A stretch of DNA of 43,736 bases from a virus: UHGV virus genome UHGV-0197631; one strand, given 5' to 3'. The position numbers and the translations under genes were made by a program. Under the pieces are notes generated by a model. That model made no database searches and had not been told where the DNA came from. It saw nothing but the letters and a program-made list of their open reading frames with translations. Every line of letters starts with the position of its first letter. The first letter of the stretch is position 1. Below are positions 15,317-41,240 of the stretch, piece after piece.

Positions 15317-15319
15317 AAA

Positions 15320-18085: not shown

Positions 18086-18086
18086 C

Positions 18087-19598: not shown

Positions 19599-19624
19599 CT
19601 ACTGCTGGCATTGAGTTAACGTCG

Positions 19625-20278: not shown

Positions 20279-20772
20279 TAAGCCCCCACGTAATTCCCTG
20301 ACAGATACCACTCTTCACCCGATGCAGCGCGCTTGCTGCTTTTCCGTAAGCACCGCTCACGACGCACCAGAAAATTGTTTCGTTCTGGCTGGGAGTGGCT
20401 TTCACGGAATGCCGCCATCCACACGGTTGCAGCACGACGGTATAAGCCCCTGGACTCCAGTTCTTCCGCCTGGCGGGTCAGGCACAAAATCACCCGGGGA
20501 TCGTTAGTGCCGACATAGAAATTGCGCACAGGTCTGGATTCACGAACTGGTTGCGGTTCCGGCTCCTGCGGTATCTCAGTCAGCCGCGGGAAATGTCTGC
20601 GTGTATCCCCTTCACAACGGTGAGCCACACGCCCACTCTGACGTAACTTGCTTGCTGACTGCTGAACGCGCTGCCGCGAGTAACCAGCAAAAGCATCCGC
20701 AATGTCTCCGGAAGTACACCCCGGATTGGCTTCAATGAATTTCTGAACGTCATTTAACAGACTCATGATCAC
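20278..20772 (-). CDS. hypothetical protein with N-terminal winged-helix-like region
   Basis: 164 aa; basic C-terminal half; translationally coupled to both neighbours. Confidence 0.35.
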   Translation of the reverse strand: MIMSLLNDVQKFIEANPGCTSGDIADAFAGYSRQRVQQSASKLRQSGRVAHRCEGDTRRHFPRLTEIPQEPEPQPVRESRPVRNFYVGTNDPRVILCLTRQAEELESRGLYRRAATVWMAAFRESHSQPERNNFLVRRERCLRKSSKRAASGEEWYLSGNYVGA

Positions 20773-21710
20773 CCCCTGAATCCTGCCGGGATCTGGCTGT
20801 AGTCCACGTTGTCGTAACTGGCTTTGAAGTACGGGTCTTCACGTTTTTCTGTGTGCGTGCTGACGGACGGCGATAAGCGCAGGGAAAGCTCATCCCATTT
20901 TTCCCGCAACTTCGACGGGCTGAGCACGTTACGGCACCAGAACGGATCGCGGCTGACGCGGCTGTACATCTCGCAGATTTGTTTGTGAGTACGACCATCC
21001 TGCACACACATCAGGCGAATTTCGTTTGCCCAGGCTGTCCAGTTAGGTTCTTTGGGACGAACCACCTCGCCGTCACATTCGGCGGCCTGCTCGTACAGGG
21101 CGATGATTTTTTTCCAGAGCCACTGTGCGCAGGTCAAATCATCCTGCGTTCCCCACTGGCGCTTTTTAGAGCTGAATACAACCGCATCAGGATGACGAGT
21201 TAAAAAATCCTGTTCATCCTTCTTCATGTCCGGTTGCGAAGCGTCCGGACGAGAAGTTTTTTTATCTGACGGATCATGTTTTGATTTTACTGACGGATCC
21301 CCGCCAGATTCTGACGGGTGAAAACCCGCTTTTTTGCCAGATTTCGACGCATCAAATTTTGACGGGTCAGATTTTGATGCGTCAGATTTTGACGGGTCAG
21401 AATCTGACAGTTGAGAAAATGCCGCTGCCTGAAGCTTCGCAACGTTAAGCTGATAAACATTCGACGCATTGCGGTTACCCTGGCGACGCGCCTTACGCGT
21501 TAACCAGCCTTCTGCTTCCAGCCGTGCGATAGCCGTTCTGACGGTACTCATCCCCGCGCCAATCTGGCGGGCAATGGTTTCAATTGATGGCCAGCACACA
21601 CCTTCGTCATTACTGAAATCAGCCAGGCGGGCCATAATTGCCACGCTGGATAACTTCATGCCTGACGCAGCGCAACCATCCCATACATAGCCGGTTAATT
21701 TAGTGCTCAT
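20769..21710 (-). CDS. replication initiation protein (HTH N-terminal domain, iteron-containing)
   Basis: 313 aa; N-terminal HTH (SSVAIMARLADFSNDEGVCWPSIETIARQIGAGMSTVRTAIARLEAEGW); repetitive SDPSKSDASKSDPSK peptide encoded by DNA iterons; lambda O-like position after cro/cII. Confidence 0.6.
   Translation of the reverse strand: MSTKLTGYVWDGCAASGMKLSSVAIMARLADFSNDEGVCWPSIETIARQIGAGMSTVRTAIARLEAEGWLTRKARRQGNRNASNVYQLNVAKLQAAAFSQLSDSDPSKSDASKSDPSKFDASKSGKKAGFHPSESGGDPSVKSKHDPSDKKTSRPDASQPDMKKDEQDFLTRHPDAVVFSSKKRQWGTQDDLTCAQWLWKKIIALYEQAAECDGEVVRPKEPNWTAWANEIRLMCVQDGRTHKQICEMYSRVSRDPFWCRNVLSPSKLREKWDELSLRLSPSVSTHTEKREDPYFKASYDNVDYSQIPAGFRG
21255..21415. repeat. iterons (direct repeats of ~18 bp, GATTTTGACGGGTCAGA-like): candidate origin of replication
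   Basis: At least 5 tandem degenerate copies (tcaaattttgacgggtcag / attttgatgcgtcag / attttgacgggtcag / atctgacggatc...) inside the replication protein gene. Confidence 0.55.
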
Positions 21711-22058
21711 GACCGACCTCTATTTCCCTGAATTTACGACGAAACTGTTCGAGCGGGCTGAAGCACTCATGCTCATAGCCTTCGCGGAGGTAGATAACCC
21801 GTTGTGTTTCCGGCTCCCAACGAATGACTCTGACGGGTACTCCGTAGTGATCTTTGAACCAGCGGTTAACTTGTCGCAAAGGACTGTCTCCTTCTGCCGG
21901 TTGAAATCACCCACAGCCCACTCAGCAAAGCTGTGGGTTACAATTTCCCTGTCACCTGGTACATTAACTGCATAGCAATACTCCACCTTCGCTTTTCCAC
22001 CCGGTACAGGAAGCGCAATCAGTTGCGAGCGACGGTAGTGTGTTGTTAAACTGTTCAT
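21700..22058 (-). pseudogene. frameshifted small gene upstream of the replication gene
   Basis: N-terminal part in one frame ([10 protein letters not shown]...AEWAVGDF); protein-like continuation in another frame (...[56 protein letters not shown]) that ends overlapping the replication gene ATG; the original frame decays into Ser-rich low complexity. Confidence 0.4.
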
Positions 22059-22684
22059 GCGTTAGTTTCTCCACAGTCACGACACGCCACGGCGCCCGGA
22101 GCTGCACACTCGCGGGCGTCATTACTTTCTGAAATGCAAAAGATTTTGTAGACCAGTGCTGCATGCTCCTGCAGCTTCGAAATTGAGAGATACAGCTCGT
22201 CGTTAATTGCTGTCTGCTCGTGTGGCTCCACTACCCCATCTTCGATTGCCGAACGAATCTGCTTTGAGTAACTCCCGATCTGTTCGATGACTTCCAGCAG
22301 GCGCTGGTTTATATCGGCGTTCTCTACTTCCTCAATTTCAGGAAGCGATACGAACACCCCACCAGCAGACTGTGCGACAGCATCCGCAATGTAGTGAGTG
22401 CCAGCTGCGCGCTGTAAAACCATTGCCCATCCCAGCGGGAAAATCTGATCGCCATCGGCACGAAGGCGGTTAAATAATGCGTTCTCTGTTACATCCAGCC
22501 AGTCAGCAGCTTCAGCGTAACCACCCGGCAACGCCGCGATAGTTTTTCTGACAGCTTTCACGTACCACTCAGGCTGTTTTTCTACTTTCCAGTGATGCTT
22601 ACCCACGGTTAACTCCTCGTTTCTGTGGTTACGTTTACGCAACTGAACCGCTAACTTTTGAATAGCACTCTGGTAATCCATCAT
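22055..22684 (-). CDS. phage regulatory protein (CII/YdaT-like position), identity uncertain
   Basis: Long ORF downstream of cro; start tentatively at MMDYQ (ATG 22684); position corresponds to cII/ydaT of lambdoid and Rac-type prophages. Confidence 0.35.
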
Positions 22685-22898
22685 TTGGATTTGGATAAAT
22701 ATCAGGACGCAGCTCATGGGGGGTTACGGACCAGTTCCCCAGCTCACAAAGTTGTAAAACTCGTTCCGACGGGACTTGATTGTTAATTACCCAATTAGCG
22801 ACAGATTGAGTAGATTTAAAACCAAAGCGACGAGCTACTTCAGATAAAGACTTTCCCGCAGCCTTTACTGCTTTCTCGGTGTAGTTTTGAGATGACAT
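22635..22898 (-). CDS. cro: Cro-like HTH repressor
   Basis: 87 aa HTH protein divergent from the cI gene across an operator-containing intergenic region. Confidence 0.65.
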   Translation of the reverse strand: MSSQNYTEKAVKAAGKSLSEVARRFGFKSTQSVANWVINNQVPSERVLQLCELGNWSVTPHELRPDIYPNPNDGLPECYSKVSGSVA

Positions 22899-22930
22899 AT
22901 CTTTCTCCTCTGAAATCCAGAGGGGATAAT

Positions 22931-22968
22931 GCTACTTAAAGTAGCAAATTGCAACTACTTAAAATAGA
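22931..22968. promoter_or_regulatory. OR-like operator region (17-bp palindrome TGCTACTTAAAGTAGCA plus degenerate copy)
   Basis: Perfect 17-bp palindrome at 22930-22946 and related CTACTTAAAATAG 20 bp downstream, between divergent cro and cI. Confidence 0.5.
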
Positions 22969-22969
22969 A

Positions 22970-23710
22970 ATGACGAGCGTATGTGATGTGAGTAATCTTC
23001 TACCTATGGTAGAAGAACAGAAGTATCCAGATTTCGCCAAGAGACTAAACGAGTTAATGACAAACAAGGGAATTTCTGTCACCCAACTCAAAAGTCTTGT
23101 TGGCGTTACATATGAAATGGCGCGGCGATACACAATCGGCGCAGCGAAGCCTCGTGCCTCTGTCATGAATAAACTTGCGTTGGCTCTGGGGGTATCGGCT
23201 TCATATTTAGAATATGGTGTTGGCGAGAGAGAAGGATGTAAGGAAATGGCAAGCATCCCCAATCCAACAAAACCCGACGTATACAGGATAGAAGTTTTAG
23301 ATCTTAGCGTTAGCGCAGGACCTGGAACCTATATGCTTTCAGACTATGTTGATGTGCTCTACGCCATTGAGTTCACAACAGAACATGCCCGTTCTCTTTT
23401 CGGTAACCGTTCTCAGGATGATATTAAGGTTATGACTGTAAATGGCGATAGTATGTCCCCTACTCTCGTTTCCGGAGATCGACTGTTTGTCGACATTTCT
23501 GTTCGTCACTTCCAGACTGATGGAATTTACTCTTTCGTTTACGGTAAGACTTTTCATGTTAAACGTCTTCAAATGCAAGGTGACAAGCTAGCCGTTCTTT
23601 CGGATAACCCTGCCTATGAGAAATGGTACATCGATGAAAAATCGCAGGATCAGCTTTATGTAATGGGCAAGGCGTTGATTCATGAGTCAATAAAATACAA
23701 TCGGTTATAG
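22970..23710 (+). CDS. cI: CI-type repressor (HTH_XRE + S24 LexA-like peptidase domain)
   Basis: N-terminal HTH, C-terminal Ser/Lys dyad context (NGDSMSPT ... HVKRL); ORF opens at TTG 22949, ATG candidates at 22970 and 23006. Confidence 0.75.
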   Translation: MTSVCDVSNLLPMVEEQKYPDFAKRLNELMTNKGISVTQLKSLVGVTYEMARRYTIGAAKPRASVMNKLALALGVSASYLEYGVGEREGCKEMASIPNPTKPDVYRIEVLDLSVSAGPGTYMLSDYVDVLYAIEFTTEHARSLFGNRSQDDIKVMTVNGDSMSPTLVSGDRLFVDISVRHFQTDGIYSFVYGKTFHVKRLQMQGDKLAVLSDNPAYEKWYIDEKSQDQLYVMGKALIHESIKYNRL

Positions 23711-23725
23711 TTCTAAGGGCATATA

Positions 23726-24073
23726 ATGGCTAGTGAGCAGGGATTCGAAAAGATTAACATGGATATGTTGGTCTCTTATTTCTCAGAAAAGAATATATAT
23801 CTAAAATGTACACTATGTGGACACGACAGATTGACTGTGCCTCAAGTCAGCGCGAATGTGGGCATGCCATGTACTATGAAACTTGGTAGTTATGTGAATG
23901 TTTTTACTGAAAAAAGCATTTATTCTGATACTGCTAACCAGTATTACTTTTCACTAATATGCAACAATTGTGGAAATGAAATTCATATAAATGCGTTTTC
24001 AGTTTTGAACTGGGTAAATGAAAAGTTCCCAGCAAAAACGGAAGATGAAAAAAATGCCGACGCCGCAAAATAA
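23726..24073 (+). CDS. hypothetical zinc-ribbon-like protein in the rexA-equivalent slot
   Basis: 115 aa; two CxxC pairs (CTLCGH ... CNNCGNE); AT-rich; 16 nt downstream of cI on the same strand. Confidence 0.45.
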   Translation: MASEQGFEKINMDMLVSYFSEKNIYLKCTLCGHDRLTVPQVSANVGMPCTMKLGSYVNVFTEKSIYSDTANQYYFSLICNNCGNEIHINAFSVLNWVNEKFPAKTEDEKNADAAK

Positions 24074-24425
24074 TGTAGTACCATTTAATAGTGAACTTCC
24101 CACAATTAGAAGACACGGTGGAGATGGCGGAGGTGATGACATGCTTGAAGCCCGAGTCGCTAAGTTAGAAGCGAATGTTGAGGATATAAAAACAAATCTC
24201 GCAGAGATGAGAGCTGACATTCGTGATTTGCGAAACGCTCTCTCCGACACCCGACGCGATGTCGCTGTTATCCTTCAAAAACAAATAGATATAGATGAAA
24301 AGTTGTCAAAAAAACCTAGCCTAAGTGAAGTCAACAGCGCTATTTCATCAGCCGTAAATAAACAGATCGCATGGACTGTTGCAACAGGCTTGGCGATTTT
24401 AGGTCTCGCCAAATTTATGTTTTGA
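24045..24425 (+). CDS. hypothetical coiled-coil protein with C-terminal transmembrane anchor (rexB-equivalent slot)
   Basis: Start at MKKMPTPQ overlapping the upstream stop; central heptad-like region (LEARVAKLEANVEDIKTNLAEMRADIRDLRNAL); C-terminal IAWTVATGLAILGLAKFMF. Confidence 0.45.
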   Translation: MKKMPTPQNNVVPFNSELPTIRRHGGDGGGDDMLEARVAKLEANVEDIKTNLAEMRADIRDLRNALSDTRRDVAVILQKQIDIDEKLSKKPSLSEVNSAISSAVNKQIAWTVATGLAILGLAKFMF

Positions 24426-24756
24426 TAAGTTTTTGACTATGACCTGCCCTAGTTTTCTTACTATCGAGGCTAAATCACACAATCCATTGAGTAGTAAATT
24501 CCCTACCGTTTTACACTTAGCCTCCAAAAACTCAACAATACTCTCATGATTGACTTCTCCCCACTTGATGATTAACTAGATCACATACTGATCTCAGCCA
24601 CAATGAAACAATCCATCACGTTCTACAACTCAGCTAACTTCACAATATAATTTTTTGATCATAGCCCCCAAAATATTTTACCTGTAAATTCAATGAATTA
24701 ATTTCAAAATGCGTTTTCATGCCCTTAACTTCTACTTTTTGTAGTTGATTTTTGCA

Positions 24757-24773
24757 ACTTTAAGTAGCAATAT
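24757..24773. promoter_or_regulatory. OL-like operator copy
   Basis: TGCAACTTTAAGTAGCA matches the OR palindrome TGCTACTTAAAGTAGCA at 15 of 17 positions (right half-site identical), ~1.8 kb from OR. Confidence 0.4.
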
Positions 24774-24896
24774 CATTTTACCGACAACGAACAGGCAGGA
24801 CGCCCACGAAGTAGCCGCTTGGGGCATATGAAGTCCAGGATGACTCGTTGAGTCATGTTGTGCCACTAGGCACTCATGTTAAAGCAGGTGTATGAA

Positions 24897-25172
24897 ATGA
24901 AAGTCCAGATTTTAAACAATAACTGTGAAGTCGTTTGGTCATACGACATAGCCGCCCCTGTAGATCAGAGCGGCGATAGCTGGACCAATGGGAAACATCA
25001 GATTATGGCTGGAGTTGTGTTCTCTTTACGCCGTGCTTTGGAACAGGCTGAAGTATTTCCATCAGACCCTGAATGGAAATGGCCTTTTTCTATTTGTCCA
25101 AATTCGGAGAGCACATTTCAGAAAATTGGTCAGAAAGTCGCACTCGAAGAGCATCAGCCAACTGTTTCCTGA
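24897..25172 (+). CDS. hypothetical protein (first ORF downstream of OL-like operator)
   Basis: Start MKVQILNN with AGGTG upstream; overlaps convergent ORF 25090..25335, so one of the two may be spurious. Confidence 0.3.
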   Translation: MKVQILNNNCEVVWSYDIAAPVDQSGDSWTNGKHQIMAGVVFSLRRALEQAEVFPSDPEWKWPFSICPNSESTFQKIGQKVALEEHQPTVS

Positions 25173-25335
25173 TTTTTTCAGGTAACTCGTCGGCATCGCA
25201 GAAACAACAACGCTCGATCATGTTGAAAGCCGATTCGTAGAACTGTTTCTGCTGAGTGTCGCTGAGACAGGAAAAGAGCGACGTTACGATGATTTTATTA
25301 ATTGCATTATCAAGTTCTTTTTCATCAAAAGTCAT
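25090..25335 (-). CDS. hypothetical acidic protein
   Basis: 81 aa; AGGAAA Shine-Dalgarno 8 nt upstream of ATG 25335. Confidence 0.35.
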   Translation of the reverse strand: MTFDEKELDNAINKIIVTSLFSCLSDTQQKQFYESAFNMIERCCFCDADELPEKIRKQLADALRVRLSDQFSEMCSPNLDK

Positions 25336-25591
25336 TTGATTTTCCTTTTATGTATACGGGCTTAAAAGGATACCACCGAGCCTGAAGTGGTGAAAAGACA
25401 GGCACATAACAGCTAAGTATTTTCAACCAAAGAGAATCCTTAGCGTTGTGGTGAATGCGGCTCAGCGCACGCGGGTTAAGGTTGAGGCTGACAGTCGACC
25501 TTCTGTGGATACCCACCCGCCTGGTGTGCAACCTTCGCCAGGCACCGGGAGGCACCCGGCACCACAACTTTATGCTGTGTGTAGTCTTGGC

Positions 25592-25635
25592 GGTACCAGC
25601 TTGTACCCTTGCTTCCGGCTGGTACCGTCCTTTTT
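25592..25635 (+). terminator. intrinsic terminator-like hairpin in PL-side operon
   Basis: GGTACCAGC ...17 nt... GCTGGTACC perfect 9-bp stem followed by GTCCTTTTT. Confidence 0.45.
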
Positions 25636-25723
25636 ACAAAACAGAGAAGAGCATCACCGGACGACGGGCTCATAACCCAATCCATCCGGGCGGCAGTCAC
25701 CGCAGGTGTTCTTCTCTGTTTTG
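25636..25723. repeat. perfect 15-bp inverted repeat enclosing 58 nt (ACAAAACAGAGAAGA ... TCTTCTCTGTTTTGT)
   Basis: Read directly from sequence; lies in a GC-rich non-coding block 25340-25754. Confidence 0.6.
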
Positions 25724-25772
25724 TGGAGAAACTAACCGACCTTGCAGGGTCGATATGATGAGGAGCAGCAAA

Positions 25773-26135
25773 ATGGCTAGCGAACGCAGTACTGATGTGC
25801 AGGCATTTATCGGGGAGCTGGACGGCGGCGTATTTGAAACCAAAATCGGCGCAGTTCTCAGTGAAGTCGCTTCCGGTGTGATGAACACGAAAACCAAAGG
25901 TAAGGTCTCACTCAACCTGGAAATCGAACCGTTTGATGAGAACCGAGTGAAAATCAAACACAAACTCTCATATGTTCGCCCGACTAACCGCGGGAAAATT
26001 TCCGAAGAAGACACCACCGAAACGCCGATGTATGTCAATCGCGGTGGTCGCCTGACTATTCTGCAGGAAGACCAGGGACAGTTACTGACTCTTGCCGGTG
26101 AACCTGACGGAAAACTCCGCGCAGCAGGTCGTTAA
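25773..26135 (+). CDS. hypothetical prophage protein (YfdP-like position)
   Basis: 120 aa from MASERS with AGGAG Shine-Dalgarno 8 nt upstream; the longer upstream extension of the ORF is not protein-like. Confidence 0.55.
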   Translation: MASERSTDVQAFIGELDGGVFETKIGAVLSEVASGVMNTKTKGKVSLNLEIEPFDENRVKIKHKLSYVRPTNRGKISEEDTTETPMYVNRGGRLTILQEDQGQLLTLAGEPDGKLRAAGR

Positions 26136-26200
26136 TATCGTTTTTAATTAACTGATTATTTATCTCATCACTGAATATCTTTATATAGTGAGGACTTATT

Positions 26201-27025
26201 ATGTCTCAGAACTTAGACGCAACCGCAATTAATCAAATCCATGCCCTTATTTCTGCTCAGGGTGTTAATGAAATTATCAGTAAGATTGGTGCCGATGCTG
26301 TGGCATTGCCTGAGAATTTCCGCATTCATGATCTGGAAAAATTTAATTTAAATCGCTTCCGTTTCCGTGGTGCGCTTTCCACTGCCAGCATCGATGACTT
26401 TACCCGTTATTCTAAAGATCTTGCAGATGAAGGCACCCGCTGCTTTATCGATGCTGATAATATGCGTGCCGTCAGTGTGCTTAACCTGGGAACTATTGAT
26501 GAACCAGGTCACGCAGATAACACCGCCACACTCAAACTGAAAAAGACAGCACCGTTCTCTGCTCTGTTGTCTGTTAACGGCGAGCGTAACTCCCAGAAGT
26601 CACTGGCAGAATGGATTGAAGACTGGGCCGACTATCTTGTGGGCTTTGATGCTAATGGTGACGCTATTCAGGCAACAAAAGCGGCTGCGGCTGTCCGTAA
26701 AATCACGATTGAAGCAAACCAGACCGCTGATTTTGAAGATAATGACTTCAGCGGCAAACGCTCCCTGATGGAGTCTGTCGAAGCGAAGACCAAAGACATT
26801 ATGCCAGTGGCATTTGAATTTAAATGCGTTCCGTTTGAAGGTCTGAAAGAACGTCCGTTTAAATTACGCCTCAGTATTATCACTGGCGATCGTCCTGTAC
26901 TGGTTCTACGCATTATTCAGCTGGAGGCGGTGCAGGAAGAAATGGCTAACGAATTTCGTGATCTGCTTGTTGAGAAATTCAAGGACAGCAAAGTAGAAAC
27001 CTTTATTGGTACTTTCACCGCCTGA
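26201..27025 (+). CDS. DUF2303-like prophage protein (YfdQ-like, from memory)
   Basis: 274 aa; length and N-terminus [21 protein letters not shown] match my recollection of CPS-53 YfdQ. Confidence 0.6.
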
Positions 27026-27037
27026 TTTCATTACTGC

Positions 27038-27059
27038 AAATGCCCCTGCGGGGGCATTT
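27038..27059 (+). terminator. hairpin AAATGCCCC tgcg GGGGCATTT
   Basis: Perfect 9-bp stem, 4-nt loop, 12 nt after the stop of the preceding gene. Confidence 0.45.
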
Positions 27060-27152
27060 ATGGAAACGTAATTTACTCAATAATCGCCGGATGGTGAGGG
27101 ATTCTTTTTACCAGAATTCAGCGCGGTGCAGCGCATATACGTGGAGAACAAA

Positions 27153-27689
27153 ATGTCATTTATTAAAACTTTTTCCGGGAAGCATTTTTATTATGACAGG
27201 ATAAATAAAGACGACATCGATATTAACGATATCGCGGTTTCCCTTTCAAATATCTGTCGCTTTGCCGGTCATCTTTCGCACTTCTACAGCGTCGCCCAAC
27301 ATGCGGTTCTTTGCAGCCAGCTGGTGCCGCAGGAATTTGCTTTTGAAGCGTTAATGCATGATGCAACAGAAGCGTATTGCCAGGACATTCCCGCACCACT
27401 GAAACGCCTTCTTCCTGACTATAAACAAATGGAAGAAAAAATAGACGCCGTAATCCGTGAGAAATACGGGTTACCCCCAGTTATGAGTACGCCCGTGAAA
27501 TATGCCGATCTCATCATGCTGGCAACCGAACGCCGCGATCTCGGGCTTGATGATGGCTCTTTCTGGCCTGTACTGGAAGGTATCCCGGCAACAGAGATGT
27601 TCAACGTGATTCCACTGGCTCCAGGCCATGCCTACGGGATGTTTATGGAACGCTTTAACGAATTATCGGAGTTACGCAAATGCGCATGA
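27153..27689 (+). CDS. HD-domain phosphohydrolase (YfdR-like 5'-deoxynucleotidase family)
   Basis: H...HD motif (RFAGHL ... LMHDATEAY) and further D residues; start at MSFIKTF. Confidence 0.6.
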   Translation: MSFIKTFSGKHFYYDRINKDDIDINDIAVSLSNICRFAGHLSHFYSVAQHAVLCSQLVPQEFAFEALMHDATEAYCQDIPAPLKRLLPDYKQMEEKIDAVIREKYGLPPVMSTPVKYADLIMLATERRDLGLDDGSFWPVLEGIPATEMFNVIPLAPGHAYGMFMERFNELSELRKCA

Positions 27690-28042
27690 ATGTTTTCGAA
27701 ATGGAAGGGTTTCTTCGTGGGAGATGTGTACCGCGAGATCTGAAAGTGAATGAAACGGATGCTGAATACCTAGTGCGTAAATTCGATGCGCTTGAAGCTA
27801 AATGTGCAGCACAGGAAAACAAAGTAATACCAGTGTCAACTGAACTGCCACCAGCAAATGAAAGTGTTTTGTTATTCGATGCTAACGGAGAAGGCTGGCT
27901 AATTGGCTGGCGTTCTCTCTGGTACACCTGGGGACAAAAAGAAACCGGAGAATGGCAGTGGACATTTCAGGTCGGGGACCTTGAAAACGTCAATATCACT
28001 CACTGGGCAGTAATGCCAAAAGCACCGGAGGCTGGAGCATAA
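27680..28042 (+). CDS. hypothetical prophage protein (YfdS/DUF551-like position)
   Basis: 120 aa, Trp-rich C-terminus; overlaps neighbours by 10 and 1 nt. Confidence 0.45.
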   Translation: MRMNVFEMEGFLRGRCVPRDLKVNETDAEYLVRKFDALEAKCAAQENKVIPVSTELPPANESVLLFDANGEGWLIGWRSLWYTWGQKETGEWQWTFQVGDLENVNITHWAVMPKAPEAGA

Positions 28043-28347
28043 TGACCACTTTTACCGACAAAGAACTGATTAAAGAAATTAAAGAGCGTATCAGCAGCCT
28101 TGACGTGCGAGACGATATTGAGCGCCGTGCTTATGAAATCGCACTCCTATCTCTGGAAGTAGAACCAGATGAACGCGAAGCTTATGAATTATTCATGGAA
28201 AAGCGTTTTGGTGACTTAGTAGATCGTCGGAGAGCAAAAAACGGCGATAACGAATACATGGCATGGAATATGACTCTCGGTTGGATCGTCTGGCAGCAAC
28301 GAGCTGGTATCCATTTCTCAAAAATCTCACAGCAAGAGGTGAAATAA
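28042..28347 (+). CDS. hypothetical prophage protein (YfdT-like position)
   Basis: 101 aa; translationally coupled. Confidence 0.45.
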   Translation: MTTFTDKELIKEIKERISSLDVRDDIERRAYEIALLSLEVEPDEREAYELFMEKRFGDLVDRRRAKNGDNEYMAWNMTLGWIVWQQRAGIHFSKISQQEVK

Positions 28348-28697
28348 TGGAGCCATACAGCCTCACACTCGATGAGGCCTGTCATTTTCTCAAGATATCC
28401 AGACCGACTGCCATTAACTGGATACGCACAGGGCGTCTTCAGGCAACACGCAAAGATCCCACTAAGAATAAATCTCCTTACCTCACAACACGACAAGCCT
28501 GCATTGCGGCTCTTCAGTCTCCGCTGCATACTGTCCAGGTGAGCGCGGGTGATGGCATAACAGAGGAAAGAAAATGTCACTCTTCCGCAGAGGTGAAATA
28601 TGGTACGCCAGTTTCACATTGCCGAACGGTAAAAGATTTAAACAGTCTCTTGGAACAAAGGACAAAAGGCAGGCGACAGAACTCCATGACAAGCTAA
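28347..28697 (+). CDS. xis: excisionase-like HTH protein (Xis)
   Basis: [33 protein letters not shown] is an HTH_17/AlpA-Xis type motif; AGAGGTG Shine-Dalgarno upstream; ORF overlaps the int start, so the true C-terminus is uncertain. Confidence 0.5.
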
Positions 28698-29737
28698 AGG
28701 CTGAAGCATGGCGGGTCAGCAAACTTGGTGAAATACCTGATATAACGTTCGAGGAAGCGTGTGTCAGGTGGCTTGAAGAGAAAGCACATAAAAAATCACT
28801 GGACGATGACAAAAGCCGGATCGGATTCTGGCTTCAACATTTCGCAGGAATGCAACTAAGAGACATTACTGAATCAAAAATTTATTCAGCAATGCAGAAA
28901 ATGACGAACCGGCGTCATGAGGAAAACTGGAAACTCAGGGCAGAAGCATGCAGAAAAAAAGGGAAACCTGTTCCAGAATACACGCCAAAACCAGCGTCCG
29001 TTGCAACGAAGGCTACGCATCTTTCATTTATAAAGGCCCTACTAAGAGCCGCAGAGCGTGAATGGAAAATGCTGGATAAGGCACCAATTATTAAAGTGCC
29101 TCAACCAAAGAATAAACGGATCCGCTGGCTGGAGCCCCATGAAGCACAAAGGCTGATTGATGAATGTCCGGAGCCATTAAAGTCTGTTGTTGAATTTGCA
29201 CTGGCAACAGGCTTAAGACGCTCGAACATCATCAACCTTGAATGGCAACAAATAGATATGCAGCGCCGGGTGGCATGGATAAACCCGGAAGAGAGTAAAT
29301 CAAACCGCGCAATTGGCGTTGCGCTGAATGATACTGCATGTCGCGTATTGAAAAAACAAATCGGGAATCATCACCGTTGGGTATTTGTGTACAAGGAAAG
29401 CTGTACCAAACCAGACGGAACGAAAGCGCCAACAGTAAGGAAGATGCGGTATGACGCAAACACAGCCTGGAAAGCGGCGCTGAGACGGGCTGGTATTGAT
29501 GATTTCAGATTTCACGACTTGAGACACACCTGGGCAAGTTGGCTGGTTCAAGCCGGAGTCCCGTTGTCAGTGTTACAGGAAATGGGAGGCTGGGAGTCTA
29601 TCGAAATGGTTCGTCGATATGCTCACCTTGCACCTAATCACCTTACCGAACACGCACGGCAAATAGACTCGATCCTGAACCCATCGGTCCCAAATTTGTC
29701 CCAGTCAAAAAATAAGGAAGGTACAAATGATGTGTAA
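28574..29737 (+). CDS. int: tyrosine integrase (lambda-type)
   Basis: 387 aa; catalytic-region motifs ([10 protein letters not shown] ... RRYAHL); ends 14 nt before the tRNA-Thr-derived att core. Confidence 0.85.
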
Positions 29738-29751
29738 CTTATTGATTTAAA

Positions 29752-29800
29752 TGGTGCCGATAATAGGAGTCGAACCTACGACCTTCGCATTACGAATGCG
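29752..29800 (-). other. att core: 49-nt 3' portion of tRNA-Thr(CGU) (thrW-type), not a complete tRNA gene
   Basis: Reverse complement reads CGCATTCGTAATGCGAAGGTCGTAGGTTCGACTCCTATTATCGGCACCA (anticodon loop with CGT, T-arm, acceptor 3' end, CCA); D-arm and 5' acceptor half are absent. Confidence 0.7.
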
Positions 29801-29984
29801 ACGTTAATATACTTTCAACTGTTTGAATAGTCACTCTAAAACTCATTTTTATCATTATAAAACATACTATTACCATAAATCACCTATTGATTAAAATTGA
29901 CAGGTGTTGATGTTTATTCCCGCAATTTACTTACACCAGCCGTTACATTACTGTAAGACAGAAATCCTCAACTGGAACCAGACT

Positions 29985-31283
29985 ATGGCGCTTTCAAGAC
30001 AAAAACTCACCTTCGAAAGACTTCGCAGATTTACTTTACCGGAAGGAAAAAAACAAACCTTCCTTTGGGATGCGGATGTTACAACTCTGGCATGCCGAGC
30101 AACTAGCGGAGCAAAAGCCTTCGTATTCCAAAGCGTTTATGCGGGAAAAACCCTTCGCATGACCATTGGCAACATTAATGACTGGAGGATTGATGAAGCA
30201 AGGAGCGAGGCAAGACGGTTACAAACATTGATCGATACCGGGATAGATCCGCGAATTGCTAAGGCTGTAAAAATCGCAGAAGCAGCATCTCAGCAGGCAG
30301 AATCACGTAAAACAAAAGTGACTTTCTCCGTCGCCTGGGAAGACTATCTTCAGGAATTGCGAAACGGTATCAGTGCAAAAACCAAGCGTCCATATTCTAC
30401 TCGATACATTGCAGATCACATCAACTTGTCCAGCCGTGGAGGGGAAAGTAAAAAAAGAGGTCAGGGCCCAACCTCAGCTGGACCATTAGCTTGTTTGCTC
30501 GACCTACCGCTATCAGATCTAACACCGGACTATATTGCTGCATGGCTGAGTACAGAAAGACAAAATAGACCGACTGTCACTGCCCATGCTTATCGCCTGC
30601 TGCGTGCTTTCATCAAATGGAGTAATTATCAGAAAAAATATCAGGGAATTATTTCTGGCGATCTTGCACAAGATTACAACGTAAAAAAAATGGTGCCAGT
30701 GTCTGCGAGCAAAGCCGATGATTGCTTGCAAAAAGAACAACTCAAAAGCTGGTTTAGATCCGTGCGTGGCCTTAGTAGCCCTGTTGCGTCAGCGTATCTT
30801 CAGGTGCTTTTACTTACCGGTGCGCGGCGTGAAGAAATTGCGTCACTTCGCTGGTCAGACGTCGATTTCAAATGGGCAAGCATGCGAATTAAAGACAAAA
30901 TCGAAGGAGAACGCATCATCCCTCTCACACCTTATGTTTCTAGCCTATTAAACGCGCTGTCCGCAGCCCCAAATGCTGAGGTAAGTAAGGAGAATTGGGT
31001 TTTCAGAAGTCATAGCAAAAGCGGCAAAATTATTGAACCTCGTTCAGCACACAATCGGGCTTTAGCGCAGGCTGAATTACCGCACATTAGTGTACATGGG
31101 CTACGCCGTAGTTTTGGTACGCTTGCCGAGTGGGTTGAAGTGCCAACTGGTATTGTTGCGCAGATTATGGGCCATAAGCCTAGTGCTCTTGCTGAGAAAC
31201 ACTATCGCCGCCGTCCACTGGATCTGCTGAGAAAATGGCATGAGAAAATTGAGACCTGGATCTTAGAACAGGCTGATATTTGA
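29985..31283 (+). CDS. tyrosine integrase (P4/CP4-57-type)
   Basis: Start at MALSRQKLTFERL; N-terminal arm-binding-like region, C-terminal catalytic region (HGLRRSFGT ... HY); second integrase abutting the same att core. Confidence 0.8.
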   Translation: MALSRQKLTFERLRRFTLPEGKKQTFLWDADVTTLACRATSGAKAFVFQSVYAGKTLRMTIGNINDWRIDEARSEARRLQTLIDTGIDPRIAKAVKIAEAASQQAESRKTKVTFSVAWEDYLQELRNGISAKTKRPYSTRYIADHINLSSRGGESKKRGQGPTSAGPLACLLDLPLSDLTPDYIAAWLSTERQNRPTVTAHAYRLLRAFIKWSNYQKKYQGIISGDLAQDYNVKKMVPVSASKADDCLQKEQLKSWFRSVRGLSSPVASAYLQVLLLTGARREEIASLRWSDVDFKWASMRIKDKIEGERIIPLTPYVSSLLNALSAAPNAEVSKENWVFRSHSKSGKIIEPRSAHNRALAQAELPHISVHGLRRSFGTLAEWVEVPTGIVAQIMGHKPSALAEKHYRRRPLDLLRKWHEKIETWILEQADI

Positions 31284-31418: not shown

Positions 31419-31862
31419 ATGAATAATCCAGCTTTTGACATACCAGAGCGGGAGATGCTTATCATCATAGATTCAAATGCTGAATCAACATGTCCAGAAG
31501 TTAATTGGGCCGAATGCGAGGCACAGGTTAACGCTCTGTTTAAAAATGCCTATAGTGAAACTAAATGCTTCATTGCTCGTGCTAAGGTAAGATTCTCGCA
31601 GCACATGAGAAGTATTAGCCGTACAGTTTTGCAATGCTTCTCATCCCCACGTCTTCAATCCAAAAACCGTGCTTCAAGATCTCGCCGTAGCCATAGCTCT
31701 TCACGGAGCAGCGGCCGCTCAGCCAAATCTAGTGATAGTGACAGTTCCCCCTCGGACCCCTTACCTCTTCATAACCTATCTCTAAGTCTTCATTTAAATC
31801 TCTCTTCGCTTTTTTCACTTTTTAGCATGGCTCATACCTCTATCGACGAGGTGATCAAATGA
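31419..31862 (+). CDS. hypothetical protein with Ser/Arg-rich low-complexity C-terminus (possibly degraded)
   Basis: 147 aa; C-terminal half is SRSRRSHSSSRSSGRSAKSSDSDSS..., atypical for a folded protein. Confidence 0.25.
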   Translation: MNNPAFDIPEREMLIIIDSNAESTCPEVNWAECEAQVNALFKNAYSETKCFIARAKVRFSQHMRSISRTVLQCFSSPRLQSKNRASRSRRSHSSSRSSGRSAKSSDSDSSPSDPLPLHNLSLSLHLNLSSLFSLFSMAHTSIDEVIK

Positions 31863-32098
31863 GCGGCATCCTATTATCTCAGTTACCTAAAGATATTCCT
31901 GCATCTTCCCTGATTTACGTAAAGGAAGTCGCCAGCCTTCTCGGACTACAGCCTCAGACGATCAGGAAGTGGATTTGCCATGATTCATTGCCTGAAGGGC
32001 TACCAACACCAAAAAAGCTAAACAGAAAAAACTGCTGGCTAAGAACCGATATTGAATCCTTTATTGCAACAAAGTTTTCAAATAACAGTAAATTCTGA
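31859..32098 (+). CDS. alpA: AlpA-family transcriptional regulator / excisionase-like
   Basis: 79 aa with HTH_17-like motif (YVKEVASLLGLQPQTIRKWI); position after integrase as in CP4-57. Confidence 0.65.
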   Translation: MSGILLSQLPKDIPASSLIYVKEVASLLGLQPQTIRKWICHDSLPEGLPTPKKLNRKNCWLRTDIESFIATKFSNNSKF

Positions 32099-34361: not shown

Positions 34362-35336
34362 CTACAGAAGACGAATTAACTCTTCCCGTGAAATCCTGCG
34401 ACGATGTACCTCATCATGGCAAACATTACAGAGAGTAATTAAGTTATCCAGTGTATTTTCTCCGCCATCAGCATGATGTTCAATATGATGTAACTCGAGG
34501 AATGTTCTGGGGTCATTTGCGATTTTACGGGCATGAGACCAGTGGCAGTGCCTGCATGCATGATGGTCACGCTCAAGTACAGCGACACGTACAGGATCGG
34601 GGATCTTTCGGTCATGCACTTCAGCCTGTCGATCTTCCTCGAGTAAATAAGCTCCGACTTCTAGCTCCGGTCTACCGGAATTTTTGGTGGCGATTGGCCA
34701 GCCATCTTCTGTACGTAGCTCACGTGTTCGTCGCGCCCACTCCTTGCTATCGTTTGCAAGGTATCGTAGTTCTTCGCCAGTCACGGGACGGCCAACGTTC
34801 TTACGCAGATAAGACAGAATTTTATCTTTCGTGGAGATTTTGCTTCGTCTGAGGACATTAGCTTCATTCCACCGCAGAGCTGCTTCCCTGTCCTGTTCTG
34901 CTGTCATCAGCGCATAAACGTCGGTTTTAAGAACGTTAATCGCACTGGCATGGAGCTCTTCCAGTGTAACCTCTCCTTGTTCGATCATTTCCTTCAACGT
35001 AGTGCCGCTTAATACGGACCAACCAAACTGCACACGCAGCTCTCTGATCCTTCTGGCATATTCACTGATACCCGCAACAACCATCAGTTCGTCACCATGG
35101 ATGATGACGCCGGGATATTTGAGTAAATAAGCCAGAATTCGGTCACGGGCTGAATTGCAATTCTCATCATTCATCAAAGAACTGCCTAAATCCCGCAGCA
35201 AATGATTGGCGGGGATTAATGCCAAAACCTGTTCCCGTAGGGAATCATCCTTGAGCTTAAACTCAAAGTCGGTAATCAACGCCAGAAGCTGTTTACGCAG
35301 CGTTTCCGGTACGCTCTTCTTCGATCTTCTCGCCAT
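34362..35336 (-). CDS. HNH endonuclease with tandem N-terminal repeat domains (putative restriction endonuclease)
   Basis: C-terminal HNH motif (HHACRHCHWSH...ELHHIEHHADGGENTLDNLITLCNVCHDEVH); two similar internal segments (EYARRIRELRVQFGWSV / EWARRTRELRTEDGWPI); overlaps the methyltransferase gene by 44 nt. Confidence 0.65.
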   Translation of the reverse strand: MARRSKKSVPETLRKQLLALITDFEFKLKDDSLREQVLALIPANHLLRDLGSSLMNDENCNSARDRILAYLLKYPGVIIHGDELMVVAGISEYARRIRELRVQFGWSVLSGTTLKEMIEQGEVTLEELHASAINVLKTDVYALMTAEQDREAALRWNEANVLRRSKISTKDKILSYLRKNVGRPVTGEELRYLANDSKEWARRTRELRTEDGWPIATKNSGRPELEVGAYLLEEDRQAEVHDRKIPDPVRVAVLERDHHACRHCHWSHARKIANDPRTFLELHHIEHHADGGENTLDNLITLCNVCHDEVHRRRISREELIRLL

Positions 35337-36423
35337 TTTGAATTAGGTATTCCATTAAATTGAGAACGTAGGTCGCAATCTTCTGCGCAAAAACTGGTGG
35401 TACTGCATTGCCAATTTGCCTTGCGATTTCGGTTTTTGAACCCACAAAAACAAATTCATCCGGGAAACTCATCAGGCGCGCGGCTTCACGATGCGTAATT
35501 GGACGATGTTGCTCTGGATGTAGATAACGCCCCTTCTCAGGCTTAAAGAACTCCGTGCGGATCGTGACAGAAGGCCTCTCCCACCACAAACGGCCAAACA
35601 AATCCGTTCCACCCGAGGTTTTTTTAATCCAGCAGGCAGGGGTAATGTCAGGTCTATTCTTTTGCAAATCAAACCGGTTTCCCCCTACCGGAACAGCTCG
35701 GTAGCGTTCCTGCGAAAGCGCAGTTGGATTTCGACCAAAGTGGAGATCTAATGGGGGTGGAAGATCACGCACCTCAGTCCCAACCGGCTCAGGCAAATCA
35801 CCTATAAAATCTCTGACTGTCAGCCAGGCTGGTAGATCCGCCCCCTTATCAGGATTCTGGTGCGACTGTACAGGTGGGAACGTTGGGATGCTATTCAGCA
35901 GGAATCGCTCTTTTTTAATTCCAATTGCAATAGCACGTTTGCGCGTCTGCGGAGCCCCGTAGTCGGCTGTGTTAAGGACAGAAGGATTCAGAAGCAGAAA
36001 ACCCATGCTTTCAGCACGAGCACAAATGTCCTGAAATTCATCACTGGACAAGAGGCCCGGAACATTTTCCATCACAAATACAGAAGCAGAAGACCTCTCA
36101 ATGATATCCATATACGGCTCCCAGAGCGCCCGTCGATGGTCCCTTTCTCGGTTCTTGTTGAGCAGGCTGAATCCCTGGCATGGCGGGCCGCCGATAACAA
36201 TATCAGCCTCAGGAATGCTGTTTTCAGCAATCCACTCTTCGATGTTCGCTACAATGCCATGCTCGCCAAAGTTGGCATTGTATGTACTGATAGCCGCCTT
36301 GTCATTGTCCAGAGCTAGGACGCTTTCAAAATGAGCGCCATTTTCCCCCTTCATGAAGCCGCAGGATAAACCGCCAGCGCCACAAAACAGATCAATGACT
36401 TTTAATTTATTGATTTTACTCAT
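35293..36423 (-). CDS. DNA (cytosine-5)-methyltransferase
   Basis: Motif I FCGAGG, motif IV PPCQGFS, ENV motif; 376 aa. Confidence 0.85.
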   Translation of the reverse strand: MSKINKLKVIDLFCGAGGLSCGFMKGENGAHFESVLALDNDKAAISTYNANFGEHGIVANIEEWIAENSIPEADIVIGGPPCQGFSLLNKNRERDHRRALWEPYMDIIERSSASVFVMENVPGLLSSDEFQDICARAESMGFLLLNPSVLNTADYGAPQTRKRAIAIGIKKERFLLNSIPTFPPVQSHQNPDKGADLPAWLTVRDFIGDLPEPVGTEVRDLPPPLDLHFGRNPTALSQERYRAVPVGGNRFDLQKNRPDITPACWIKKTSGGTDLFGRLWWERPSVTIRTEFFKPEKGRYLHPEQHRPITHREAARLMSFPDEFVFVGSKTEIARQIGNAVPPVFAQKIATYVLNLMEYLIQNGEKIEEERTGNAA

Positions 36424-36734
36424 TAAAATATAATCCTAGTTCCTACATACATATTCATGGTTAAGTATATCATAATGCGAAACTGTATGTATCCACAGTA
36501 ACAAGGTGATACGTTGTGAAAAATGCTTGGAAGTATATTGCTAGCATCATATCCCTTAATATCGATGAAAAGCAGTTTAATTATTGCTCGTAGCGGACTT
36601 TTCGACGCTTCGGGCCGTCCGCTCAGTGCCATTAGCAGACATTTTTGATATGTGGTTCCTACTAACCTGATTGTCTTAAAGAGTTTATAATTGTGCTGGA
36701 AAAGAAATTCTGATCATTATGTAGGAGAAACGTT

Positions 36735-37571
36735 GTGGCTAACGAAAATACCGAGTACGAGAAACTTACCCAAGAGATCTACCAGGCCATATGCAATGCT
36801 GAGGGAGTTAAGAATTTATCAGTTCAGCATAATGTAAAAGTCCCAGGAAAATCTGGCTGTAACCACCAGATAGATGTTTACTGGGAATTTGAAATAATGG
36901 GTGTAACACACCGCGTGGCCATCGAATGTAAAAACTATTCAAGCGAAGTTTCTGTTGGGAAAGTACGCGACTTTTTCGGTGTACTACATGATATCAGTAA
37001 TGTGAATGGTATTTTCGTGACCAAAGTTGGTTACCAAAGTGGAGCTGTAAAATTTGCCAATCACTACGGTATCAATCTGAAAGAAATACGATTCCCAACA
37101 GCAACAGACTGGAAAGGAAGAGTAAAAGATATTGTCATAACAATCACTGCGTTCTTTGCTAATATCAAAGAGCGAAACATTCATTTTGATTTTGAGTGGA
37201 TCCGTGAAAACACAAATGTGAAAGAAGGAGATCGCCTAGTACTTTCAGGCATGGCTGATGAGATAAAAATAGTTGATGCGAATGGAGAACTAATCACAAC
37301 CCTATACGACATTGAAAATGAACTCCCGCGAGATGTTGAGATAATTGATAAAACCTTTGAAAAAAAATTCAATGAGGCATTCATTACTACTCCATCTGGC
37401 GATAAATTTAAAATTTACGGGATCAGCTATTTGTACGATGTTGTTTCTGAATCTGAAACATCGATTAGCGAAGGCGATTTGATTGCTCGTGCAATACTCA
37501 AAGATGTCGGTTCGGGAGCAATAAAATTCTTTGACCAAAGCGGGAATATTCGTGATGTTCGGGATGTGTAA
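36735..37571 (+). CDS. Mrr-like PD-(D/E)xK nuclease domain protein with uncharacterised C-terminal domain
   Basis: GTG start with AGGAGA Shine-Dalgarno; N-terminal QIDVYWEF...VAIECKNY (D...ExK) with Mrr-type context; ~150 aa C-terminal region of no recognisable family; AT-rich. Confidence 0.5.
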   Translation: MANENTEYEKLTQEIYQAICNAEGVKNLSVQHNVKVPGKSGCNHQIDVYWEFEIMGVTHRVAIECKNYSSEVSVGKVRDFFGVLHDISNVNGIFVTKVGYQSGAVKFANHYGINLKEIRFPTATDWKGRVKDIVITITAFFANIKERNIHFDFEWIRENTNVKEGDRLVLSGMADEIKIVDANGELITTLYDIENELPRDVEIIDKTFEKKFNEAFITTPSGDKFKIYGISYLYDVVSESETSISEGDLIARAILKDVGSGAIKFFDQSGNIRDVRDV

Positions 37572-37839
37572 CTAAATATATCAAGTGAAGTTATTCGTAA
37601 TGTGAACAGCCATGACTTTCGTGGCTATTTTCATTGCAGGTAAAAAACTTACTTCAGCTTCTCGCGCAAAGCTGTTCTTGATGTCTCCGAGACTGTCCGC
37701 CCCCTGCCAAAAGCTGACATTGCCAACATCGAAGGACATTGCTCTATGAGGCGCAGGTCAAACGCATTACAGGATCTTAGTGAGCAGGTTTCGGCATTCA
37801 AAAAATAAAGGCAAGGTGGAAACCACCATGCCTATTAAA

Positions 37840-38868
37840 CTAAGCGTTATCTATGTATTTCAATGCATAGCTTTCGAAGCTGTTTATTTTATTAAAATAA
37901 TCAGGAATAAATGCATGGACAAATGTATCAAGGTCAGTATTAATCGTGTTTGTATTGATTAATTCAATCATGTGTTCAGGTTCGCTGTCCAAAAAGAGAA
38001 TTGCAAGTATGAGACCGAACTTTGGTGCTATTTCTCTAAATATCAAATAAGTAAGTTCACCGTAAGGCTTCACGCTTTCATTCAAAATGCCAGAGATATA
38101 CTCCCTGCCATTCATGCCGCGTTTATTATAGGAATCTATAATTTCGTAAAAATCGCTGCCATCGATATCAACTTCAGGGTCAAAATCATTGAGTGATACA
38201 TCGTTGTTTAGACAATATCTTACTGTTGAAATACACAAGTAAAGAAAAAGAAGGGTTCCCAGACTACCTTGGCGTTTTACTGGATTTCCGGACTCTGATA
38301 GGTATCGATATTGGCAATAGTACGCAATGGTTTCACACAAACTAATATGACGTATCAAGAGACTATCATCATTACAAGCGCGTGATATACTAAAATCAGC
38401 GGCATGACCGAGTTCATGCACAAAGAGGTCTGTAGATGTCACTCCAAATGGATCATCTTGAGTAAAAATGAAATGTTCATCATCTCTGTTGGAAATACAA
38501 AAACCCTCAGAACTTTTTCTGATTTGATTCTCAATATGAAGCCACTCAACCTTGTTCAGATTAACTTTTAGGCAATTCTCAACAAAATCGCGCGCTACAT
38601 TAAATTCACGCTCTGAAATAGGATTGCCTAATGAAGATGGGTCAGTGGAACTCAAACGCTTCAGAAATTCAGAAGAAAAATATAAAGGCGAAACCAGATC
38701 AACAAGAGCCGTGACTGAATTCAGGAGTTTATTGTGCACATCCCCTACAATTTCTTCGCCAGTCCTGTGTAATGCCTCATCAAATTCCTGGAAAGAGTTT
38801 CCATTTTTAGTAGCAATCACGCATTGCGTTTCAAGTTCATAGTATTTTTTTCGCAGTATTGAATGCAT
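37840..38868 (-). CDS. HExxH motif protein (putative metallopeptidase-like), unknown function
   Basis: Single HExxH (VHELGHAAD) in 342 aa; AT-rich; convergent with the Mrr-like gene. Confidence 0.4.
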   Translation of the reverse strand: MHSILRKKYYELETQCVIATKNGNSFQEFDEALHRTGEEIVGDVHNKLLNSVTALVDLVSPLYFSSEFLKRLSSTDPSSLGNPISEREFNVARDFVENCLKVNLNKVEWLHIENQIRKSSEGFCISNRDDEHFIFTQDDPFGVTSTDLFVHELGHAADFSISRACNDDSLLIRHISLCETIAYYCQYRYLSESGNPVKRQGSLGTLLFLYLCISTVRYCLNNDVSLNDFDPEVDIDGSDFYEIIDSYNKRGMNGREYISGILNESVKPYGELTYLIFREIAPKFGLILAILFLDSEPEHMIELINTNTINTDLDTFVHAFIPDYFNKINSFESYALKYIDNA

Positions 38869-39678: not shown

Positions 39679-39773
39679 CCTAACAATAAACCTGTTTAAA
39701 TATCCAGATAAAAACATTCAATCTGGGTCAAATGAGTGATACAGTTTCACCCATAAGACCCAATGGAGGCAAT

Positions 39774-41207: not shown

Positions 41208-41212
41208 TCGCT

Positions 41213-41236
41213 CCTCCCGGTATTTATGCCGGGAGA
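41213..41236. terminator. bidirectional hairpin between convergent ecoRIIM and ecoRIIR
   Basis: TCCCGG tatttatg CCGGGA stem-loop in the 33-nt gap between the two stops. Confidence 0.45.
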
Positions 41237-41240
41237 TAAT

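Follow-up and report, generated by a model that had tools for sequence, protein, structure and literature searches.

The window analysed here, a stretch of 43,736 nucleotides given as the whole of viral genome UHGV-0197631, contains parts of two mobile elements that meet at a short piece of a tRNA gene (Table 1). The left-hand element is an SfV-like lambdoid prophage, represented by its integrase-proximal part, and the right-hand element is an island of the IntF/CP4-6 type that carries several restriction systems. The tRNA-derived sequence lies between the 3' end of the phage integrase gene and the 5' end of the island integrase gene, and its structure is central to the interpretation developed below.

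Table 1. Features of the window, listed from left to right (coordinates in the window; strand as annotated)
Feature	Position	Strand	Basis
SfV-like lambdoid prophage with Mu-like contractile tail, int-proximal part	1..29751		96.6-98.6% nucleotide identity to SfV, SfI, SfII and the E. coli relative vB_EcoM-689R6 (window 1-25000)
Phage excisionase (HTH_17), overlapping the int start	28263..28697	+	Pfam HTH_17; position as SfV xis
Phage integrase, SfV/P22 family tyrosine recombinase, 387 aa	28574..29737	+	98% to SfV Int; Pfam Phage_integrase 1-171/172
thrW tRNA-Thr(CGU) 3' fragment, read as shared hybrid att core	29752..29800	-	49/49 to K-12 thrW; unique in the window; no full tRNA
46-base attP core of SfV/SfI/SfII/SfX/P22 type, sole stretch common to phage-type and island-type sequence	29752..29797	-	end of SfV homology; island-only genomes; published core (PMC3636060)
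Island int-proximal att arm and probable int promoter region	29801..29909	+	alignment of 8 IntF-type loci
Island integrase, IntF/CP4-6 type, 457 aa (start most likely)	29910..31283	+	91% to K-12 IntF; Arm-DNA-bind_3 and Phage_integrase
AlpA-like small HTH protein	31859..32098	+	Pfam HTH_17 below gathering score (24.3 vs 27 bits); position as ykgV in CP4-6
YfjI/DUF3987 backbone gene	32107-33498	+	Pfam
YagK/YfjJ, inovirus Gp2-like backbone gene	33628-34308	+	Pfam
Defence cargo block	34362..42455		Pfam, PADLOC, IS1-like similarity
HNH nuclease	34362-35336	-	Pfam, PADLOC
5mC methylase, partner of the HNH nuclease	35293-36423	-	Pfam, PADLOC
Mrr-like nuclease (Mrr_cat)	36735-37571	+	Pfam match only
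346-aa ORF between the Mrr-like gene and the EcoRII module	37840-38880	-	no match in Pfam, NCBIfam, PADLOC
IS1 scrap	about 39388-39683		IS1-like similarity
EcoRII methylase	39732-41207	+	Pfam, PADLOC
EcoRII endonuclease	41241-42455	-	Pfam, PADLOC
Tn3-family transposase C-terminal fragment, inside the island	43249..43707	-	Pfam DDE_Tnp_Tn3

In the prophage, regulation and head genes of lambdoid type accompany a contractile tail that is Mu-like, as in the SfV gene map. Position 1 of the window falls inside the baseplate/DNA-circulation genes, and the tail-fibre end and the far att site lie beyond the window. The far att site was sought in loci that contain the first 80 nt of the window, 120 metagenome and 120 viral ones; only in four contigs of related prophages does a junction of flank, 46-nt core and P' arm lie 7.0-11.5 kb to the left of the window start, and many relatives carry other integration modules, for example that of vB_EcoM-689R6 at icd. 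The O-antigen modification genes (gtrABC) expected at this far end of an SfV/P22-type prophage would fall an estimated 7-11.5 kb outside the window. Within the window, the ORF at 98-1468(-) has no identical protein on record by exact-protein look-up. The ORF at 25455-26135(+), which encodes 226 aa in the early region, stands in place of yfdP of related prophages and has neither a Pfam match nor an identical protein on record.

The integration module of the prophage is of the SfV/P22 thrW-targeting type: an integrase of that family has xis immediately upstream, and 14 bp past the int stop codon lies the 46-base core ATTCGTAATGCGAAGGTCGTAGGTTCGACTCCTATTATCGGCACCA, the reverse complement of 29752-29797. 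The product of the xis-like ORF also gave a weak, sub-threshold match to an NCBIfam excisionase domain (25.3 bits vs a cut-off of 28.8). An earlier, sequence-only reading of this DNA had placed the end of a lambda-type integrase gene at 29737, and this is where the ORF for the SfV/P22-family Int of the lambdoid prophage ends. This exact Int protein occurs in 28,578 blocks of assemblies. At 10/10 of the loci listed for it, int ends 14 bp from the core, and the core runs into a complete thrW followed by proA-proB-phoE; across 800 bp and through the core, the phage arm DNA of the window shows 98.9-99.75% identity to 10 loci with a complete thrW, and this identity ends at 29800. Heavily deleted remnants of SfV-like prophages also occur at this site, one retaining about 10.4 kb between two thrW cores (L205 1110-11612) and another about 14 kb from a tail gene to the int-thrW junction (L140).

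To the right of the tRNA-derived sequence, the island opens with an attachment-site arm that is conserved in IntF-type islands of Escherichia, Enterobacter, Citrobacter and Kluyvera and includes blocks such as TTGAT..AAATTGA..GTTGATGTTTAT; the alignment of arm and core took in loci from K-12, E. coli ECONIH4, ECGI0523, Enterobacter, Citrobacter and Kluyvera. A promoter and terminator scan of the seam returned weak consensus matches only (sigma-70-like). The sequence-only reading had the right-hand integrase begin at 29985, a position that we revise: the ATG at 29910 is most likely the start, because 214 blocks of assemblies contain exactly the resulting 457-aa product, whose alignment with K-12 IntF begins at residue 1. 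As in K-12 CP4-6, and unlike in P4, the integrase occupies the tRNA-distal end of the island and reads inward, so that the tRNA fragment and the integrase gene are divergent here.

The label "P4-type" that the same reading had given to this integrase holds in part. The domain architecture (Arm-DNA-bind_3 followed by Phage_integrase) and the position of the core some 110 bp upstream of int are as in P4, but kinship is not, the two integrases being 24% identical over 129 aa (pairwise E = 3e-4). Additionally, tblastn against 50,697 phage records, a collection that includes P4, returned no relatives of the island Int at E <= 1e-5. Membership of the island in the P4 family proper was rejected on the basis of this low identity and of the absence of P4 from the tblastn matches. 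Searches of the island ORFs within the window with Pfam, PADLOC and NCBIfam yielded neither the P4 helper-exploitation genes (sid, psu, delta) nor an alpha primase, the domains recognized being confined to DUF3987, YagK, R-M and Mrr. The features found are instead those of the IntF/CP4-6 type, namely an IntF-like integrase preceded by the 49-nt thrW fragment and the conserved arm, and past int a backbone composed of an AlpA-like HTH gene, yfjI (DUF3987) and yagK/yfjJ, as recognized by Pfam and by comparison with the CP4-6 annotation. The AlpA-like protein is likely to be a recombination directionality factor or regulator of the island. Just ahead of it, the ORF at 31419-31862(+) encodes a 147-aa protein with a serine-rich C-terminal half and without a match in Pfam, NCBIfam or PADLOC.

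Past the backbone, the island carries a cluster of defence systems, in line with the sequence-only reading, which had called it a defence island. Two type II restriction-modification modules (an HNH endonuclease with a 5mC methyltransferase, and the EcoRII endonuclease with its methyltransferase) match PADLOC models, and they are accompanied by an Mrr-like nuclease recognized through Mrr_cat by Pfam only. The EcoRII module (39388-42611) is 99.7-99.9% identical to copies on many multiresistance plasmids, in which it adjoins class 1 integrons, IS6100, IS26-like elements and Tn5403, and in the window it is bracketed by the IS1 scrap and the Tn3-family transposase fragment. This sequence relationship suggests that the module has been exchanged between plasmids and the chromosomal island.

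The island continues past the window end. One other assembly (L015, GCA_015353715.1) is 100% identical to window 31241-43736 and extends a further 8.7 kb beyond position 43736, with no thrW in this added stretch. The extension (L015 1-8720) carries an ArsR-YgiW-RcnA-RcnR-NcrA...HupE nickel/cobalt resistance cluster, and the same cluster, at 99.8% identity, is present in the thrW array of E. coli CAVP773 (L058 28781-36572) as well as on many plasmids. Because it is the opposite way round in the CAVP773 array, the cluster appears to be shuffled cargo and offers no guide to where the island ends. A search for homologues of a nickel-cluster protein, followed by look-ups of two contigs, met other CP4-like islands and did not reach a thrW beyond this one.

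Elsewhere the same island is found in a variety of settings. Among the loci listed, eight in seven other assemblies (L004-L011) each start with the same core followed by 'acgttaatatac', and window 29752-41283 is 99.96-100% identical to seven of them (L004-L006 and L008-L011), the match to L007 extending only to 36494. Taken as a whole, the island part of the window (29752-43736), which is the core and the 14 kb after it, has 100% identity to one of these assemblies (GCA_015353715.1; L006, L015), and six others carry it at 99.96-100% beside different neighbours. The left neighbours vary from locus to locus and include chromosome, other islands with a 407-aa P4-like integrase and Gabija-like cargo, and other lambdoid prophages. 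At one locus (L005 8456-11374), the same 49-nt fragment separates the 457-aa integrase from the 407-aa P4-like integrase, which lies opposite on the minus strand and is accompanied by OLD/UvrD (Gabija-like) cargo; at another (L004), the left-hand integrase of the 407-aa type is truncated to 205 aa. The genomes that bear the island have flanks that are not E. coli-like, neither the island nor the exact junction occurs in any of 5,426 complete E. coli genomes, and the nearest integrase from a species representative is that of an Enterobacter sp. (96%). Taken at face value, these sequence identities make the element look like a currently mobile restriction island that crosses host backgrounds. 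A 7.6-kb contig (JAYRGX010000052.1, L032) of a metagenome-assembled genome labelled Bacteroides sp. also carries the end of this enterobacterial island, with 99% integrase identity and the same core and arm; this contig is probably mis-binned.

The sequence that separates the two elements, positions 29752-29800, reads TGGTGCCGATAATAGGAGTCGAACCTACGACCTTCGCATTACGAATGCG on the plus strand. Its reverse complement is identical at 49/49 positions to nt 28-76 of the 76-nt thrW gene of E. coli K-12, which encodes tRNA-Thr(CGU) (locus L003 3357-3432), placing the tRNA sense on the minus strand. The fragment starts at the second base of the anticodon stem and takes in the loop with the CGU anticodon, the variable loop, the T arm and the acceptor 3' strand as far as the CCA end. 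Identity to thrW breaks off exactly after 49 nt, at a position occupied by A in the window and by C in thrW. ARAGORN identified 0 complete tRNA genes in the whole 43.7-kb window. Rfam gave a partial tRNA match at 29763-29820(-), covering model positions 9-63 with 33.2 bits vs a gathering score of 29; in this match the island arm fortuitously mimics a D arm, and the acceptor 5' strand is absent. The 49-mer has a single copy in the window even with up to 3 mismatches permitted (matches in shuffles, 0/100). A blastn-short search with the whole thrW gene as query detected no second piece longer than 11 nt in the window, and a second, shorter thrW fragment was ruled out on this basis. The sequence-only reading had reported an exact 49-nt 3' portion of a thrW-type tRNA at this position and had taken the 3' part alone for an att core copy; the comparison with K-12 thrW verifies the first statement and the restriction of the match to nt 28-76, with no gene called by ARAGORN, agrees with the second, while re-inspection by ARAGORN, Rfam and blastn-short brought no complete tRNA gene to light in the window. 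These comparisons support the view that the fragment is an att core copy flanked by the arms of two different integrating elements, and they exclude a tRNA gene. There is a practical lesson for annotation in that a tDNA fragment at an island end can exceed the Rfam gathering score for tRNA.

The point at which one element gives way to the other can be delimited from both sides. Homology to the SfV virion DNA ends at 29797, beyond which the SfV attP reads TATaagaatccg, and island-type sequence begins at 29752, the position from which island-only genomes match. With phage-type sequence reaching 29797 and island-type sequence starting at 29752, the exchange falls inside the 46-base overlap, which is the published attP core of SfI, SfII, SfV, SfX and P22 (PMC3636060). 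By this architecture the seam is a hybrid attachment site, strand exchange having taken place within the 46 shared bases, and the 49-nt fragment serves both prophage and island as the int-proximal att, which for the island is the tRNA-distal one. The copy is 49 nt long because bases 47-49 derive from the island side. The P' arm of the phage (TATAAGAATCCG...) is absent at this seam. A relative in which the same island adjoins another lambdoid prophage (L008, core at 9843-9891, phage Int 66% identical) has three core substitutions, all of them on the phage side, among the 27 nt closest to the CCA end; the pattern is consistent with a variant core brought in by the phage. From this one relative, exchange probably occurred on the anticodon side of the core, which fits the anticodon-centred class of crossovers.

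On the organization of the sequence, we consider it very probable that integration at the thrW tRNA-Thr(CGU) hot spot has produced a tandem array, of which the 49-nt fragment forms the middle repeat. Two of the features by which Islander recognizes such arrays are present: a tDNA 3' fragment that matches the end of the target tRNA gene in full (49/49), and a separate integrase for each member, the core being flanked by two unrelated tyrosine recombinases. A third, in which every member is bounded by a fragment of its own and an intact tDNA of like orientation stands at one end, is visible in complete analogues (NZ_CP062811.1, NZ_CP026399.1), whereas the window contains the middle core copy only. 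For example, the closed genome of E. coli Res13-Sevr-PER07-33 has, in order, a yagP' flank, a 46-nt core followed by TAT and the phage P' arm, an SfV-like prophage, a 49-nt core, intF...CP4-6...ykfI, a complete thrW and proA, and the closed genome of E. coli ECONIH4 has a phage int, a core, an int pseudogene, a 44-kb island, thrW and proA. In total, a junction of SfV-type int, core and IntF-type int is present in 7 closed E. coli chromosomes. Permuted arrays also exist, in which the phage is proximal to thrW and the island distal (L199, L205), and the core serves integrases of at least three lineages, namely the SfV/P22 type, the IntF type and a P4-like type of 401-407 aa that is 22% identical to the IntF type. 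Identification of the core and both arms, together with the complete analogues in closed E. coli genomes, supports the proposal of the sequence-only reading that the lambdoid prophage and the island sit in tandem at the same tRNA site.

In mechanistic terms, each element that integrates at thrW carries its own copy of the tRNA 3' end, the copy of the SfV-type phage measuring 46 nt and that of the IntF-type island 49 nt. Exchange inside the shared identity would then regenerate the tRNA gene on one side and leave the displaced 3' fragment on the other, and a second element entering one of the two resulting copies would convert the copy between the elements into a hybrid site. The order observed in the window is phage P arm (xis-int), core and island int arm (int-alpA-yfjI...), and the full order expected in the window orientation, with the outer copies postulated, would be chromosomal flank, 46-nt core, prophage, 49-nt core, island, intact thrW (minus strand) and proA. 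Both orders of arrival yield the same product; it is somewhat more likely that the island was resident and that the phage landed in its distal core copy.

Other origins of this arrangement have to be weighed against a tandem array. An assembly artefact could in principle have joined, through the shared 49-nt repeat, a phage-thrW junction and a core-island junction that belong to different organisms. The exact 90-nt junction recurs in one IMG/VR contig only, itself metagenome-derived, which matches window 23146-34424, seam included, at 100% identity and remains within the extent of the window; moreover, the phage Int is typical of E. coli/Shigella and the island, as described above, of carriers with non-E. 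coli flanks. Nevertheless, we regard such a chimera as very improbable. At 46-49 nt the repeat falls short of the final k-mers of current assemblers, so that reads must span it. A junction of the same kind is present in the 7 closed E. coli chromosomes, and in isolate genomes the island adjoins the integrases of other lambdoid prophages (L007, L008). A decayed tRNA pseudogene, that is, a thrW copy that lost its 5' part by deletion or non-specific insertion, might be considered in view of the Rfam score, which exceeds the tRNA gathering threshold as a partial tRNA. It is hardly credible, however, since the break coincides with the exact boundary of the 49-nt repeat found at every IntF-type island, K-12 CP4-6 included, the sequence past the break is the conserved island arm, and remnants of the thrW 5' half are lacking in the window.

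Equally remote is the notion that the whole window is one element, with the island as phage cargo at or beside attP. It has in its favour that a virus-prediction pipeline put 4.6 kb of the island into a viral contig, and that SfV-type phages do carry gtrABC beside attP (PMC3636060). Against this, the island is phage-free or has unrelated neighbours, and is always bounded by the core, at the 8 loci in seven other assemblies listed (L004-L011); phage homology goes no further than the 46-nt core, and the junction lacks the P' arm; the island has its own integrase and regulator; and the phage together with at least 22.7 kb of island would exceed the 37-41.5 kb genomes of SfV, SfI, SfIV and SfII. 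The tandem array is the reading that we retain for what follows.

A tandem array raises the matter of how its members might leave. On the model of the lambda, P22 and P4 tyrosine integrases and of the Islander principle (PMC4383910), we infer that both elements should still be able to excise singly, each by recombining its own arm pair, since an intact int with a small HTH partner is present in both. Excision of the phage would leave flank, core and island, and excision of the island would leave phage, core and thrW. The sequence-only reading had also envisaged that the elements are mobilised together, a claim that finds no support here: the outer junctions of the composite would bear arms of different elements, and joint excision, in which the phage P' arm would pair with the island arm, is unlikely. 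A further hypothetical possibility is that the adjacency is functional, with the island (int, AlpA-like protein, DUF3987 protein and Gp2-like replication protein) acting as a satellite-like exploiter of the SfV-like prophage, for example by being co-induced, replicated in situ or packaged. The observations that bear on this idea are the adjacency itself and the island's 100% identity in unrelated backgrounds, nothing beyond, and we view it as a long shot. If it were true, the shared hybrid att would let the phage Int/Xis affect excision of the island, and through this a three-system restriction island could be carried across genera.

The arrangement illustrates how one tRNA gene gathers mobile elements: each integration adds a usable target copy, so that phages and islands stack, and each seam comes to consist of two integrase genes around one tRNA scrap. 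It also matters for annotation, virus predictors overrunning the seam, and for the correct delimitation of prophage and island; in the present case what lies past the seam is a restriction-rich island that is identical in several host backgrounds and appears to be currently mobile. Beyond this, the locus is a textbook case and opens no new biological question.

Among known systems, the island most closely recalls K-12 CP4-6, whose location at thrW is standard K-12 annotation (PMC3032704). The two share the 49-nt thrW fragment followed by A, a homologous arm, an integrase at 91% identity that is tRNA-distal and directed inward, and a backbone with an AlpA-like HTH and a YagK/Gp2-like protein; in K-12, the intact thrW lies 34 kb from the intF-end fragment, beside proA. 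They differ in that the cargo of the window island is wholly other, with three restriction systems and, past the window, the nickel cluster, and in that the K-12 fragment abuts the chromosomal yagP' flank whereas the window fragment abuts a prophage. The arrays of Res13-Sevr-PER07-33 and ECONIH4 have the same seam as the window, with xis-int, the core and an IntF-type int in this order (nucleotide identity about 89-92% across 2.8 kb), and in them the intact thrW can be seen together with every core copy, three (or two) in number. Both come from closed isolate genomes and have other island cargo and a somewhat different phage. Satellite phage P4 resembles the island in the N-terminal arm-binding domain of its integrase, in an att core just upstream of int and in an AlpA/Vis-like small HTH gene. 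It differs in its target, leuX rather than thrW, and in the orientation of the core, which in the window is opposite to int and thereby makes int tRNA-distal; the Sid, Psu and Delta families are also unmatched on the island ORFs in Pfam scans, a comparison made through domain matches as opposed to direct protein comparison.

The process by which such a seam may form has an experimental precedent in the tandem integration of SfI and SfX at thrW in Shigella flexneri (Sun et al. 2011, PMC3306764). There, too, a second element with the same 46-base core enters the att left by the first, resulting in a shared middle att (PMC3306764); however, SfI and SfX are both phages, their integrases belong to one family and their arms are homologous, whereas the window joins a phage to a non-phage island with unrelated integrases and arms. 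More generally, 125 tandem arrays at tDNAs were recorded by Islander among 3,919 islands (Hudson, Lau & Williams 2015, PMC4383910), and thrW is one of the E. coli tDNAs that are used most (PMC7545054). The window shares with the Islander arrays an integrase for each member and a tDNA 3' fragment, as well as an identity block from the anticodon stem that fits the anticodon-centred crossover class (PMC4383910), and it differs from them in nothing of principle, containing the middle fragment only. Tandem arrays at tRNA genes, and at thrW in particular, have thus already been described, and the arrangement is a well-known and common one in enterobacteria.
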